Shown here piece by piece: positions 7,620 to 9,796 of a stretch of 32,000 nt of DNA. The translations under genes and the position numbers were made by a program. Within the stretch, counting starts at the first letter, position 1. Each line of letters begins with the position of its first letter. Source of the stretch: Candidatus Saccharimonadota bacterium (lineage in GTDB: Archaea; Nanohalarchaeota; Nanosalinia; Nanosalinales; Nanosalinaceae); the NCBI GenBank assembly GCA_001761425.1, contig CP012986.1, forward strand, positions 180,001-212,000, given 5' to 3'. Below the pieces are notes generated by a model, which did no database searches, had not been told where the DNA came from, and saw only the letters and a program-made list of their open reading frames with translations.

Positions 7620-8279
7620 CTATTTGAAGACTTCTCCGGTCTCCATTGACCATAGGACAAAGTCAAGTTCCTCCAGAGGGATATCTATTTTCCCGGAGAA
7701 CTCTCTGAGTTTTTCCTCGTACTCCATGTACTCTTTTCTTCCGTCTGGAAAATCAGGTTCTTTCAGGAGGCCTAATTGATGCATCTTGCGGATTATATGT
7801 CCAGAGATGATTGCGAAGTCCTTGCCTCTGCCTACGTTACGCAGGAAATGGGACGCTCCTTTCCAGGAGAGGCCTTTAATGTTTTCCACCAGCCATTCCC
7901 GGGATTTCTCTGGTTCTTTTCCCCATATCTGTCTTTTGAGCTTCAGGCCTTTCTCAGGCTTATCAAGAGTTGGCTGCATCAGGAAACTGCGGTTTTCAAC
8001 GATGTAGCTGGCCTTGTCCTCGCTGTACCTGATGTCTTCGCCCTCTAGAATATCTCTGATCTCTTCTCTGCTTCCCTCGATGAGAAGATTTTTTCTATCC
8101 AGTTTTTCTGTTGCTTTCCATGCCTTCTCTGCCTCTGTCTGGGATGTGAGGATGACGAAGGCAAGTTCCTGGAAAATTCTTTCTTCACTTGCCTGTTCAA
8201 GGCCTCTGAACTCTCTGATTCTTTCTTTTATCTCGTCTTCTTTCTCTCTGTACTGGTTCTGGATTTTTCTAGTTTCCAT
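7620..8279 (-). CDS. ogg: HhH-GPD glycosylase, archaeal Ogg2-like (8-oxoguanine DNA glycosylase/AP lyase family)
   Basis: 219 aa. 'ELAFVILTSQTEAEKAWK' and 'GLSWKGASHFLRNVG' match the COG1059/Ogg2 pattern, including the catalytic-Lys context. The downstream '..IISGHII..' replaces the expected '..D-x-H..' (see findings). The gene overlaps the upstream gene by 11 nt. Confidence 0.75.
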   Translation of the reverse strand: METRKIQNQYREKEDEIKERIREFRGLEQASEERIFQELAFVILTSQTEAEKAWKATEKLDRKNLLIEGSREEIRDILEGEDIRYSEDKASYIVENRSFLMQPTLDKPEKGLKLKRQIWGKEPEKSREWLVENIKGLSWKGASHFLRNVGRGKDFAIISGHIIRKMHQLGLLKEPDFPDGRKEYMEYEEKLREFSGKIDIPLEELDFVLWSMETGEVFK

Positions 8280-9051
8280 TTTTCAGGTTATTCTCTATCG
8301 CAGTTTTTATACTCTGGTAGTCGTTTCCGACCTGCTGGCCGTTCACGTACACGGTCGGGGTGGACGTAACTCCGTTACCGTTGGCGATCCTCTGATCCGC
8401 CTGTAACTCGTTAGCTGTGCTCTGGCTGTCGAGGCCTTCCCTGATTTCTTCTGCTGTAAGATTGGTTGTCTCTGTAGCTGTATTGACAATAATTCCTTGA
8501 TTCAACCTTGTTTCTGTTCCGTAGAGTTTACTGTGGAAGTCCCAGAAGTTGTCTCTGTCGTTCTCCCAGATGTATTCTCCGGCTCTGGCGGCAAGGCCTG
8601 ATGTCTCGTCTATTACCGGTAGGTTGATGTAGTAGAACTTTACATCTCCGCTGTCTATGTACTCGTTTTTCAGCTTTGGCTTGATCTCGCTGTCAAACGT
8701 TTTGCAGTGAGGACACTGGTAGTCTCCGAACTCCACTACTGTCACAGAAGCGTTTTCATCGCCCAGCATAGGCTGTCTGTAGAGTTCAAAAGGACTGGAC
8801 TGGAACATTGACATAACCTGGGGTAGGACAAGAGCCACGAATATGATCAGTGTGACGCCTGTAAGGCCTTTCAAAAGAAGATTTCTGCGTCTTGACCTGT
8901 TTATTTCTTCTTTCTGTTCTTTTTCTCTTTTGGCTTTCTTTGTTTTTTCTTTTTGGTGGGAGTTGAGTTCGTCTTCATGTTTTTCTTCCCAGTGAAGGTG
9001 CAGATCTTTTCCTGATTCAAATTTTTCGCCGCAGAATTTGCATTCCTTCAT
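8269..9051 (-). CDS. membrane-anchored DsbA-like thiol:disulfide oxidoreductase with N-terminal C2H2 zinc finger
   Basis: 260 aa. The classical finger is 'CKFCGEKFESGKDLHLHWEEKH' (C-x2-C-x3-F-x5-L-x2-H-x4-H). It is followed by a K/R/E-rich linker and one TM ('GLTGVTLIIFVALVLPQV'). The thioredoxin-fold domain carries 'YQCPHCKTF' and a DsbA-like tail. Confidence 0.8.
   Translation of the reverse strand: MKECKFCGEKFESGKDLHLHWEEKHEDELNSHQKEKTKKAKREKEQKEEINRSRRRNLLLKGLTGVTLIIFVALVLPQVMSMFQSSPFELYRQPMLGDENASVTVVEFGDYQCPHCKTFDSEIKPKLKNEYIDSGDVKFYYINLPVIDETSGLAARAGEYIWENDRDNFWDFHSKLYGTETRLNQGIIVNTATETTNLTAEEIREGLDSQSTANELQADQRIANGNGVTSTPTVYVNGQQVGNDYQSIKTAIENNLKNGN
8921..9000 (-). repeat. near-identical 80-nt segment shared with 9665-9745 (N-terminal zinc-finger/linker module of two adjacent genes)
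   Basis: By hand alignment, 8921-9000 and about 9665-9745 differ at 6 of 80 positions. The rest of the two genes is unrelated. Confidence 0.8.
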
Positions 9052-9100
9052 ATAAAGAATAAATGATGGACGGGGTATAAACCCGTTCTGATACAGTTTT

Positions 9101-9796
9101 CTAACTCATGGATTGAGACTGCGTGGTCACCTGAGACTGCAGTTCGCCGATCTCTTCCTCTGTGTAGTTTCCGTAGGTGAGCAGGATCTGGTCGCCGGTC
9201 TCGAACCTGAAATCTGTGGGTTCGATCTCTCTCCAGTCTTCGTCAGTGTTCACAAACATCCTTACTTCTCCGTTCTCGCCTTCACGGTAAGTGTCGCCTG
9301 GAGTCTGGAGGAAAGTGCTGTTGTAGTCAAAGCCAAGTGTCCTCATGAAGAATCTGAAATGCGCTCCAGTAGCATGGGAGTGGACTACGTCTCCGTTACC
9401 GCCCTCTACGTGAGCTTTAGATGACACCACCTGGTACTCTGAACGGGAGAAATCAATTTCCTCGCCCTCAACAACTACAGAGAAATCAGCGTGGTAGTGA
9501 GCAGAACCTGCAGGGCCTACATTCCCAGGTGCTTCAGGCATGGAAGAGGTAAGCTGTGGAGCTAACATGGCACCTCCGCCTACCAGAGCTACAAGTATTA
9601 CACCTAGCACAGCATAATTTCTGTACTCTTTCCTCTTTGCCCGCTTCCGCTCCCTTTCCTTCTTTTTTTCTCTTTTGGCTTTCTTTACTTTTTCTTCTTG
9701 ATGGGAGTTGAGTTCCTCTTCATGTTTTTCTTCCCAGTGAAGATGAAGTTCAGTCTCATCCTCAAACTCTTCCTCACAGAATTCACATTCAACCAT
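9101..9796 (-). CDS. membrane protein with N-terminal C2H2 zinc finger and His-rich extracytoplasmic domain
   Basis: 231 aa. 'CEFCEEEFEDETELHLHWEEKH', then a K/R-rich linker and the TM 'AVLGVILVALVGGGAML'. The external domain contains 'SAHYHADFSVVVEGEEIDF...AHVEGGNGDVVHSHATGAHF'. The N-terminal module is about 92% identical at DNA level to that of the neighbouring gene. Confidence 0.7.
   Translation of the reverse strand: MVECEFCEEEFEDETELHLHWEEKHEEELNSHQEEKVKKAKREKKKERERKRAKRKEYRNYAVLGVILVALVGGGAMLAPQLTSSMPEAPGNVGPAGSAHYHADFSVVVEGEEIDFSRSEYQVVSSKAHVEGGNGDVVHSHATGAHFRFFMRTLGFDYNSTFLQTPGDTYREGENGEVRMFVNTDEDWREIEPTDFRFETGDQILLTYGNYTEEEIGELQSQVTTQSQSMS

Follow-up and report, generated by a model that had tools for sequence, protein, structure and literature searches.

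Several described systems resemble, in part, the locus analysed here. Bacillus subtilis BdbD, which has an N-terminal membrane anchor, carries the thioredoxin/DsbA fold and CxxC site that also make up the ectodomain of one of our proteins, but BdbD lacks a zinc finger on the cytoplasmic side, and its partner is the DsbB-like BdbC. ScsC and related Scs proteins are DsbA-fold proteins encoded with copper-tolerance genes, much as a DsbA gene here adjoins a multicopper oxidase cluster; they are, however, periplasmic, soluble or otherwise anchored, and finger-less, and their partners ScsA, ScsB and ScsD were not found here. TlpA, Sco and PCuAC proteins and CcdA offer a further parallel in gene context, in that the second ectodomain at this locus, a His-cluster domain, is encoded with CcdA, TlpA-like redoxins and copper enzymes, although no relationship to either Sco or PCuAC could be detected in its sequence or fold.

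Other likenesses concern the arrangement of domains. ToxR, CadC and TcpP share the layout only: an N-in cytoplasmic domain, a single transmembrane (TM) segment and, outside the cytoplasm, a domain in which the state of thiols or of a ligand matters. Their cytoplasmic part is an OmpR-type winged helix, which was not found in our proteins, and their periplasmic parts are sensors, whereas the ectodomains here are a DsbA enzyme and a member of a mostly finger-less domain family. Bacterial zinc-ribbon and zinc-finger TM proteins, such as Staphylococcus aureus TcaA and the zinc anti-sigma factors, likewise combine an N-terminal cytoplasmic zinc domain, one TM segment and an ectodomain, but their zinc domains are C4 ribbons or HxxxCxxC motifs instead of C2H2 beta-beta-alpha folds, and their ectodomains are unrelated. 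Classical C2H2 fingers of the TFIIIA/Krüppel type have the same ligand spacing, F/L core and predicted beta-beta-alpha fold as the fingers described below, which differ in being single, archaeal and mounted on a membrane anchor, with an acidic surface and atypical recognition positions.

Here we describe nanohaloarchaeal (DPANN) proteins that join such a finger to a TM segment and an ectodomain, encoded in a window of 32,000 nucleotides (the whole stretch of DNA that was analysed). A first-pass annotation of this DNA had not recognised the arrangement as a described archaeal system, and we agree: a literature search found no paper describing finger–TM–ectodomain proteins, the His-cluster domain has no match in Pfam, NCBIfam or the PDB, and the architecture appears to be undescribed. 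In our leading explanation, held with about even confidence, the two adjacent proteins are N-in/C-out envelope proteins of thiol and metal (probably copper) homeostasis that carry an accessory docking finger.

Gene layout, finger module and topology

The first-pass annotation had singled out two adjacent minus-strand genes, here called A and B, both opening with a classical C2H2 finger placed in the cytoplasm, followed by a Lys/Arg/Glu-rich linker and a single TM helix and ending outside the cell in a DsbA-like thioredoxin fold with a CPHC motif or in a His-rich domain. It had also placed a copper-oxidase cluster nearby and an overlapping gene for an oxidative-damage glycosylase. All of these features were recovered, in the following layout.

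7620–8279, minus strand: Ogg (8-oxoguanine DNA glycosylase) gene (Pfam Ogg-HhH, 2.2e-47; NCBIfam PRK01229 above cut-off)
8269–9051, minus strand: gene A, an ORF of 260 aa with finger, linker, TM segment and BdbD-like DsbA domain
8293–8775, minus strand: DsbA domain of A, with CPHC at 8704–8715
8821–8880, minus strand: predicted TM segment of A
8977–9042, minus strand: finger of A, CKFCGEKFESGKDLHLHWEEKH
9052–9100, minus strand: B–A intergenic region, with an element and a palindrome around a TATA-like box
9070–9086: palindrome ACGGG-TTTATAC-CCCGT, surrounding the TATA-like box in the B–A intergenic region
9085–9096: element CTGTATCAGAAC, in the B–A intergenic region
9101–9796, minus strand: gene B, an ORF of 231 aa with finger module, E/K/R linker, signal-anchor TM segment and extracytoplasmic His-cluster domain
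9161–9520, minus strand: predicted extracytoplasmic His-cluster domain of B, residues about 93–212
9557–9616, minus strand: TM signal-anchor of B, residues 61–80, predicted from hydropathy and K+R asymmetry
9671–9796, minus strand: N-terminal module of B, residues 1–42, comprising the finger (C4/C7/H20/H25) and a conserved ELNSHQEEKVKKA helix
9722–9787, minus strand: finger of B, CEFCEEEFEDETELHLHWEEKH
9797–9854: divergent promoter region of 58 bp between gene B and the DUF7471/HTH/multicopper oxidase cluster
9855–12871, plus strand: divergent four-gene cluster (Pfam and NCBIfam)
9855–10121, plus strand: small DUF7471-like membrane protein
10118–10579, plus strand: ArsR/HVO_0163-type double winged helix-turn-helix (wHTH) regulator
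10632–12260, plus strand: membrane-anchored multicopper oxidase (MCO)
12260–12871, plus strand: cupredoxin-like protein with an H...C-x4-H-x4-M motif

In both A and B the finger starts at residue 4 and has the form C-x2-C-x12-H-x4-H, or in full C4-x2-C7-x3-F11-x5-L17-x2-H20-x4-H25. Across 33 homologues, 17 of them B-type and 16 A-type, its four Cys/His ligands, whose conservation had been proposed as a check, never vary; F11 and L17 reach at least 90% conservation in the same sequences, and H18, W21, S31 and H32 of the module are invariant or nearly so. The conserved face consists of L-H-L-H-W together with the ELNSHQEEKVKKA helix that follows, and in all homologues the Cys at residue 4 sets the finger at the extreme N-terminus. 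Searched against the PDB, the finger profile matches fingers of the classical C2H2 type (Aart, 3e-11; CTCF, 2.6e-8; also ZNF568). Structure prediction, another check proposed, points the same way: AlphaFold2 gives a beta-beta-alpha finger at residues 2–28 (pLDDT 83–89 in B and 78–82 in A), with strands at 2–3 and 10–11 and a helix from residue 14 (14–28 in B, 14–24 in A). The Pfam gathering threshold of 27 bits for zf-C2H2 and zf-C2H2_4 was not reached by A (20.0 bits), B (15.7 bits) or a third finger gene described below (21.3 bits); single fingers often score short of the Pfam cut-off. Members of the His-domain family match zf-C2H2_4, zf-C2H2 and zf-C2H2_jaz, the last of these, a dsRNA-binding model, in 15 of 107 members. 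Taken together, sequence and predicted structure indicate that the finger is a real cytoplasmic domain, presumably stabilised by zinc.

The linker holds 12 K+R residues in A and 16 in B (net charge +4 and +7) and leads into a single hydrophobic segment (residues 58–77 in A and 61–80 in B; mean Kyte–Doolittle hydropathy about 2.1–2.25). Because K+R residues are enriched before this segment (6 versus 1 in the 15 residues before and after it in A, and 9 versus 0 in B), an N-in/C-out topology is predicted, with the finger in the cytoplasm. The AlphaFold2 model of B has one unbroken helix over residues 31–75, and the charged helix of 30–35 residues would keep the finger clear of the membrane.

In 5.8e9 proteins searched and 185,579 species genomes scanned, the nanohaloarchaeal module turned up only on DsbA and His-domain proteins; its confinement to two ectodomains with linked functions might just as well point to pathway-specific signalling. 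The finger is carried by 54 of the 150 best His-family representatives and is missing from the other 96, and it has been gained and lost freely among close orthologues. Because so many orthologues are finger-less, we regard it as an accessory, optional add-on. Pairwise identity among A-type proteins is 76% for the module as against 46% for the ectodomain. The tails behind the finger vary from strongly basic in some proteins to strongly acidic in others, and an ELNSH-type helix also occurs without a finger, before the TM segment of two DsbA proteins (P0274 and P0276).

The Ogg gene shares 11 nt with the end of gene A, and a finger gene followed by Ogg recurs at six further loci (L001, L003, L004, L008, L009 and L017). 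Adjacency of A and B is not general, other nanohaloarchaea having just one of the two at this locus. The element CTGTATCAGAAC has a single exact match in the window and is found again upstream of orthologous finger-DsbA genes in L005, L006, L012 and L015; the element and palindrome probably represent a promoter or operator of gene A's own. The divergent promoter region beyond gene B is rich in A+T and contains two TATA-like boxes in opposite orientation (ATTTAT-GAT-ATAAAT). The same MCO cluster also lies opposite the finger-DsbA gene in L015 and the finger-His gene in L017, and is not present at several orthologous loci (L003, L004, L009 and L083). The HTH regulator and DUF7471-like small membrane protein lie divergently beside the finger gene in the window and in L015, L016 and L008, and conventional HTH regulators adjoin finger genes in related clusters as they do here. 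The last product of the window's cluster has no Pfam match; its H...C-x4-H-x4-M motif and weak laccase C-terminus matches (E 0.4–1.2) suggest that it is cupredoxin-like.

Ectodomains and their thiol-redox and copper context

Sequence and structural models identify gene A as a BdbD-like DsbA thiol:disulfide oxidoreductase. It matches Thioredoxin_4 (E 3.9e-28; 99.2 bits, cut-off 23.2) and DSBA (50.6 bits, cut-off 25.6), among solved structures B. subtilis BdbD is the nearest relative (PDB 3eu3; E 1.3e-41 over residues 90–257), and the next tier consists of ScsC-type copper-resistance DsbAs and further DsbA-like proteins linked to copper (PDB 4gxz, 6mhh and 6nen; E about 8e-12 to 2e-8). The CxxC site and cis-Pro loop (C113-P-H-C116, T231 and P232) are invariant in 16 A-type homologues, and the AlphaFold2 model has a pLDDT of 85.8 overall and 94–98 in the DsbA domain, which topology signals place outside the cytoplasm. 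No gene for a DsbB, VKOR or CcdA membrane recycling partner was found within the window.

The outer part of B is His-rich, with HYHADF at residues 100–105 and HSHATGAH at 139–146. Full-length homologues number 17 (98–32% identical), the named ones belonging to Candidatus Nanohaloarchaea or Nanohalobium. Beyond these, B contains the core of a wider family, G-x-G-S-x-H-x-H...H-x-E...H-x-H-A-T-G, which follows a signal or anchor; H100, H102, H129 and H139 are invariant, and H141 nearly so, in a 107-sequence alignment. HMMER found 1,289 representative clusters among 1.84e9 representatives (E ≤ 1e-3); the family is large and so far unnamed, and its sequences mark it as extracytoplasmic. Most members conserve a Cys pair that B lacks. 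A lipobox-like motif occurs in 5 of the 150 best representatives, all 5 among the finger-less members, and a homologue encoded on a haloarchaeal plasmid is a lipoprotein with a lipobox. Some members match ThiS and DUF4430 weakly, two give a weak match to the TcaA model, and the C-terminal half of B's domain is beta-grasp-like. The AlphaFold2 model of B has a pLDDT of 75.7, and Foldseek found no significant structural match for its ectodomain (best E 0.1). The domain would consist of a beta-sheet bearing the four to five invariant His residues, followed by the beta-grasp-like half, and the His cluster is a putative metal site, for which we infer copper as the most likely metal.

Thioredoxin-fold proteins and CcdA recur as partners of the His-domain family. 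The domain is fused to Redoxin/AhpC-TSA in five proteins (P0046, P0059, P0125, P0140 and P0168) and to DsbA in another (P0179), and a thiol-redox neighbour or fusion is present in 20 of the 30 His-domain loci of at least 5 kb. In 64 metagenome loci a co-directional cluster is conserved that runs from CcdA through genes for a membrane protein rich in His, a TM-thioredoxin-like protein and a triple-thioredoxin protein to the His-domain gene and, last, a wHTH gene. TlpA-like redoxins, some with weak SCO1/SenC similarity, also occur in this gene context, and on a Halorussus plasmid the His-domain gene is divergent from a gene for a Tat-lipoprotein DsbA-like protein. Copper genes accompany the family in nanohaloarchaea and on one further DPANN-like contig at least; L030 has a finger-His gene immediately after that of a CopA-type ATPase, beside a PadR-TRASH regulator.

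A third finger-TM-DsbA gene, missed by the first-pass annotation, lies 19 kb from A and B.

27178–27690, minus strand: polytopic membrane protein of 170 aa with an invariant GCxxC and a C-terminal Cys, directly downstream of the third DsbA
27692–28669, minus strand: third finger-TM-DsbA gene, 325 aa, with a CPYC active site
28580–28645, minus strand: finger of the third gene, CDNCGEEFDSERGLHIHVGQVH

Its linker or tail after the finger is acidic (net −12). Just over half of its best homologues have the finger (63 of 120), the rest being the same DsbA without it, and a DsbA–COX2/cupredoxin fusion occurs in its clade (P0295). The pairing of this DsbA with the GCxxC membrane protein, which has no Pfam match, recurs in L086 and L087, and the GCxxC gene stands beside DsbA in L027; it is a candidate for the recycling partner of the third DsbA.

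Possible roles of the finger

In the explanation that we favour, A, B and the third gene product would be type-II signal-anchored envelope proteins with their working parts outside the cell. Because the His-domain family recurs with thioredoxin-fold proteins, CcdA and copper genes, A and B most likely act jointly on the outside of the membrane in disulfide and copper homeostasis, where they could mature cuproenzymes, such as the neighbouring multicopper oxidase, or protect against their chemistry. What the finger does is the part that we word most cautiously. We propose that it is a docking or tethering module for a cytoplasmic protein partner, or for sister proteins with the same module, rather than for DNA; docking would let it arrange or control the redox and metal proteins of the envelope.

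The first-pass annotation had instead likened A and B to ToxR/CadC-type one-component transmembrane regulators that couple the extracytoplasmic redox or metal state to a nucleic-acid-binding finger. Taken as a model of membrane-tethered transcription regulators, the redox or metal state of the ectodomain would shift oligomerisation and the finger with its basic linker would bind promoter DNA. Several observations suit this reading: the N-in/C-out topology and conserved ligands, a module better conserved than the ectodomain in A-type proteins and confined to two functionally linked ectodomains, and the conserved element upstream of orthologous finger-DsbA genes. In A and B an otherwise acidic protein has a strongly basic linker, and some known DNA binders (GAGA, Ros/MucR) use a single finger with basic flanks; B's finger and basic stretch of net +7 resemble them. 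The finger itself, however, is strongly acidic (net charge −13 in B and −4 in A), and its canonical base-contact positions −1/2/3/6 are non-basic (S or D, a variable residue, E, and L/I/V), which argues against canonical base contacts. The net −12 tail of the third gene's finger is hard to square with nucleic-acid binding. Most His-family members (the same 96 of the best 150) manage without a finger, an enzyme and a widespread metal-type domain make up the ectodomains in place of dedicated sensors, classical HTH regulators adjoin, and A and B lack the OmpR-type wHTH by which ToxR and CadC are defined. We consider this reading unlikely: ToxR-like gene control is probably not the finger's job.

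Similarly doubtful is a finger that acts on its own protein, as a fast-folding zinc plug that fixes the N-in orientation and stabilises the long cytoplasmic tail, or as a cytoplasmic CxxC stability switch sensitive to zinc, copper or oxidants. The extreme N-terminal position in all homologues, the free gain and loss among close orthologues, the variable charge of the tails and the copper and oxidative-damage contexts (MCO, CopA and Ogg) would fit, but a generic plug would be expected on many membrane proteins, not on two ectodomain families, and H18, W21, S31 and H32, none of them ligands, are conserved beyond the needs of folding. A conserved surface made of L-H-L-H-W and the ELNSHQEEKVKKA helix, and not of base-contact positions, could also belong to a tether that, in the manner of membrane-bound zinc anti-sigma factors and CnrYX, sequesters a soluble regulator and frees it on ectodomain change or proteolysis. 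The double-wHTH protein encoded next to the finger genes, with its DUF7471-like companion, would be one example of such a cargo; a basic partner would suit the acidic finger, and the finger-less ELNSH-type helices before the TM segments of DsbA proteins agree with an interaction surface. Yet several orthologous loci lack the HTH cluster, A and B have neither the HxxxCxxC anti-sigma motif nor a zf-HC2 match, archaea have, to our knowledge, no sigma factors, and single-pass signalling would need dimerisation or proteolysis. We regard such a relay as distinctly improbable.

A broader possibility, which we rate as low, is that the finger–TM–ectodomain proteins are transmembrane couplers of an archaeal envelope system not yet recognised, in which the His domain would be a copper-dependent DsbA partner and the finger would report or control its state. 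The His domain might then serve as an oxidant, or handle copper together with the MCO and the cupredoxin-like protein, in organisms without a DsbB–quinone route, and the finger would bind a regulator or nucleic acid inside the cell. In the explanation that we favour, envelope homeostasis with an accessory docking finger, the parts outside the cell would explain most of the biology of these proteins: the handling of envelope disulfides and, probably, of copper.

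Three membrane proteins with an N-terminal finger

Two adjacent minus-strand genes, A and B, were recovered as open reading frames (ORFs) exactly where the first-pass annotation had described a C2H2 finger, a charged linker and one transmembrane (TM) segment, and a six-frame scan added a third gene that was absent from its list.

Features of the window, and of loci carrying relatives (L-numbers)
8269–9051, minus strand: gene A, finger–TM–DsbA, ORF of 260 amino acids (aa)
9101–9796, minus strand: gene B, finger–TM–His-cluster domain, 231-aa ORF adjacent to gene A
27692–28669, minus strand: third gene, finger–TM–DsbA, 325 aa
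27178–27690, minus strand: polytopic membrane protein with GCxxC, paired with the third DsbA
12260–12871, plus strand: ORF after the multicopper oxidase, with signal peptide, C-terminal TM anchor and H...C-x4-H-x4-M motif
9070–9096: imperfect palindrome ACGGG-TTTATAC-CCCGT with an upstream element, just upstream of gene A
28705–28723: imperfect palindrome ACGGGGGATACTCCCTCGT, just upstream of the third gene
L086 4974–5468, L087 4909–5424 and L027 1166–1705: relatives of the GCxxC membrane protein
L030 851–5087: cop-type cluster with, in a row, genes for a PadR–TRASH regulator, a 174-aa membrane protein, a CopA-type P1B ATPase and a finger-bearing His-domain protein

Proteins A and B both begin with M-x-E-C, the pattern C-x2-C-x3-F-x5-L-x2-H-x4-H starts at residue 4, and a Lys/Arg/Glu-rich stretch and a single hydrophobic segment follow. 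The number of Lys and Arg per 15 flanking residues falls across this segment from 6 to 1 in A and from 9 to 0 in B; from this bias, the predicted topology is N-in/C-out, in agreement with the cytoplasmic finger that had been proposed from the positive-inside rule. The C-terminal part of A is a DsbA domain (Thioredoxin_4 match at 99 bits, CPHC site), as first read, and that of B contains the His motifs quoted in the first-pass annotation, with no match in Pfam or NCBIfam. The copper-oxidase surroundings were also borne out: a multicopper oxidase (MCO) cluster is divergently adjacent to the finger genes, and gene A shares an 11-nt overlap with the Ogg glycosylase gene. Named homologues of B belong to Candidatus Nanohaloarchaea, Nanohalobium or Nanosalina, which, with a match of the third protein described below, marks the window as nanohaloarchaeal (DPANN).

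By every sequence-level criterion the ectodomain of A belongs to the DsbA/BdbD family. Among solved structures, BdbD of B. subtilis, itself membrane-anchored, comes closest (E 1.3e-41), and ScsC-type copper-resistance DsbAs are next; no recycling partner for A was found in the window. The third protein, 94% identical to a 'Nanohaloarchaea archaeon SW_7_46_7' protein, combines the finger CDNCGEEFDSERGLHIHVGQVH, an acidic linker (net charge −12), a TM segment and a DsbA domain with CPYC. It defines a second finger–DsbA family, whose own finger (F-D-S-E-R-G-L-H-I-H) is strongly conserved and whose tail is acidic; the finger is kept in 63 of the 120 best homologues, about half of the close relatives being without it. 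Directly 3′ of this DsbA gene in the window, and of a DsbA gene in L086, L087 and L027, lies the gene for the GCxxC membrane protein (164–179 aa), in which GCxxC and a C-terminal Cys are invariant. This protein has no Pfam match and may be a DsbB/VKOR-like recycling partner of the third DsbA from an unrecognised family. On the other side, a Cdc48/VAT AAA+ ATPase gene (28735–31029, minus strand) is directly upstream of the third gene, as in L086 and L087 (three of three loci); this pairing may be mere conserved gene order.

Conservation of the Cys and His ligands, which the first-pass annotation had proposed as a check, proved complete: C4, C7, H20 and H25 do not vary among 17 B-type and 16 A-type proteins, in which F11, L17, H18, W21 and the adjoining ELNSHQEEKVKKA stretch are nearly invariant. 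A profile of the module (finger plus the adjoining conserved ELNSH-type helix) matched classical fingers in the PDB (Aart, 3e-11; CTCF, 2.6e-8; ZNF568, 8e-8), and HMMER matches included one eukaryote-like protein with 26 matched stretches. AlphaFold2 predicted a beta-beta-alpha unit (finger pLDDT 83–89 in B and 78–82 in A), followed in both proteins by one long helix running through the linker into the membrane segment. Single-finger Pfam scores were below the gathering threshold, as is common for lone C2H2 fingers. From ligand conservation, PDB profile matches and the predicted fold, we consider the finger a genuine C2H2 domain, as the first-pass annotation had it.

A finger-only profile search yielded one apparent stand-alone finger, P0034 (67 aa). 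It is a truncated finger–DsbA: DsbA fragments follow the finger at 6001–7047 of its locus (L083, a 1.15-Mb JGI contig), and frameshifts break every gene on that contig, so the solitary finger is an artefact. Gene conversion between A and B was considered as the source of their common module; among the first 57 codons, in which GAA and AAA dominate, 27 are identical, 9 synonymous and 21 replaced, which is not decisive. Small C2H2 proteins in PDB entries 6skg_Bo, 9sra_Bk and 9qf4_Bk, which judging by chain labels appear to be ribosome structures, matched the finger part of the family profile weakly (E 0.06–0.24), which hints at RNA contact by some such fingers.

A His-cluster domain in thiol-redox and copper neighbourhoods

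A HMMER pass with the B alignment against 1.84 billion representative proteins gave 1289 matches (683 at E ≤ 1e-10), and the His-rich domain of B therefore represents a large family. In an alignment of 107 sequences, H100, H102, H129 and H139 are invariant and H141 nearly so; the AlphaFold2 model of B places the conserved His on three neighbouring strands, and we read this cluster as a predicted metal site. Most members also conserve a Cys pair that B is without. An N-terminal C2H2 finger is present in 54 of the 150 best representatives, and the remainder have a short tail and TM segment or, in five cases, a lipobox-like signal; the His domain is therefore extracytoplasmic and the finger optional.

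No counterpart of the family was found in Pfam, NCBIfam or the PDB, and on sequence comparison the domain is outside every named family. RefSeq labels haloarchaeal members 'hypothetical' or 'MoaD/ThiS family', and cluster names yielded one automatic label, 'sulfur carrier protein ThiS'. We rejected ThiS/MoaD membership: the weak ThiS and DUF4430 (beta-grasp) similarity is confined to the C-terminal half, and the protein is extracytoplasmic. NCBIfam matches of B to SCO2400, DamX, EssA and anti-sigma models span only the charged linker and TM segment and were dismissed as compositional.

Three independent lines, from fusions, neighbourhoods and a plasmid, tie the His domain to extracytoplasmic thiol-redox proteins. 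It is fused to Redoxin/AhpC-TSA (TlpA-like) domains in five proteins (P0046, P0059, P0125, P0140 and P0168) and to DsbA in another (P0179). A co-directional cluster recurs among 64 metagenome loci, encoding CcdA, a His-rich membrane protein (about 370 aa, Cys-rich C terminus), a TM-thioredoxin-like protein, a triple-thioredoxin protein, the His-domain protein and a small winged helix-turn-helix (wHTH) protein, and among the 30 loci that span 5 kb or more, 20 show a neighbour or fusion partner of thiol-redox type. On a Halorussus plasmid, the His-domain gene and a gene for a DsbA-like Tat lipoprotein are divergently oriented. The CcdA-to-wHTH cluster, observed in L036, L039, L041, L044, L047–L050, L067 and L070–L073, has the appearance of an undescribed thiol-redox operon of the archaeal envelope.

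Copper-related genes form the other recurrent context. In the window, L015 and L017, the finger gene faces a cluster encoding an ArsR/HVO_0163-type regulator, a multicopper oxidase and a cupredoxin-like protein; the DUF7471-like membrane protein of this cluster is missing in L017. The ORF after the oxidase (12260–12871) is kept in L015 and L017; its product has no Pfam match and only weak matches to laccase C termini (E 0.4–1.2), and its motif resembles a type-1 copper site. In L030, the gene immediately after that for the CopA-type ATPase encodes a family member with a finger, beside the PadR–TRASH regulator, and a DsbA–COX2/cupredoxin fusion was found among relatives of the third gene. Neither A–B adjacency nor linkage to the MCO cluster is general among orthologous nanohaloarchaeal loci: in these, the order PolB, Na/Ca exchanger, (Ogg), finger gene is preserved, A or B is present but not both, and the MCO cluster is often missing. 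One metagenome-assembled genome (MAG) has B in the orthologous slot and an A-type gene on a separate contig. The L006 contig (JBLGBK010000002.1), labelled as a Colwellia polaris MAG, carries a nanohaloarchaeal-type finger–DsbA beside a PolB 64% identical to that of the window, and is probably mis-binned or mislabelled.

Role of the finger

Whether 5.8 billion proteins were searched by word index or 185,579 species genomes were scanned for a pattern, the nanohaloarchaeal module was found only on DsbA and His-domain proteins. Mean pairwise identity among A-type proteins is 76% in the module versus 46% in the enzyme domain; among B-type proteins the two parts are about equal (66% versus 63%). Two proteins (P0274 and P0276) have an ELNSH-type helix without the finger.

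With modest confidence, we propose that the finger is a protein-docking or tethering module. The first-pass annotation had instead likened the proteins to ToxR, with the finger binding nucleic acid. Its account of architecture, topology, conservation and novelty held, but the regulator mechanism found no support: the finger region is acidic (net charge −13 in B and −4 in A), its base-contact positions hold S or D, a variable residue, E and L/I/V, the conserved surface is found on the C-terminal side of the helix, and ordinary HTH regulators are encoded next door. Some nucleic-acid or signalling role is nevertheless favoured by the basic linker of B (net +7), by the resemblance of 15 of 107 family members to the dsRNA-type JAZ finger and by confinement of the module to one pathway. 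As rivals to docking or tethering we keep three readings: a ToxR-like regulator, a relay of anti-regulator type, and a plug or switch that acts on the protein itself.

Upstream of gene A lies the element CTGTATCAGAAC, which is found again ahead of orthologous genes in L005, L006, L012 and L015; it and the palindromes preceding the finger–DsbA genes are possible operators. As the mark of a regulon, the CTGTAYCASAAC element was rejected, with one exact match in the window and 15 at up to two mismatches against 6.6 expected.

Relation to known systems

ToxR and CadC share the layout of A and B, but their defining wHTH is missing, and A and B are therefore not members of that group. TcaA, a bacterial zinc-ribbon–TM–ectodomain protein, and membrane anti-sigma factors are alike in outline only. 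In line with the first-pass annotation, we found no publication describing a C2H2–TM–DsbA or C2H2–TM–His-domain protein; literature searches on archaeal C2H2–DsbA, nanohaloarchaeal zinc fingers or multicopper oxidases, HVO_0163 and DPANN DsbA returned nothing relevant. Classical C2H2 fingers are rare in prokaryotes, and we know of none described as a cytoplasmic tail on redox enzymes that work outside the cytoplasm. Conservation of this tail extends across the nanohaloarchaea, and the same ectodomain family bears related fingers in other DPANN-like and haloarchaeal-type sequences. The initial observation is confirmed and now takes in a third gene together with a new, large domain family: what emerges is a set of membrane-anchored envelope proteins of Dsb type, whose cytoplasmic C2H2 tail is unusual, and a new partner domain of metal type.

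Host contact by DPANN archaea depends on surface proteins; to our knowledge, the oxidation and metallation of their envelope proteins are poorly known. Transmembrane signalling by the finger, if real, would amount to a novel type of one-component system in archaea; failing that, annotating three genes and a new domain family is still useful. The newly exposed, uncharacterised His-cluster family (about 1,300 representative clusters) is a concrete candidate for a missing piece of archaeal cell-surface oxidative folding or copper delivery.
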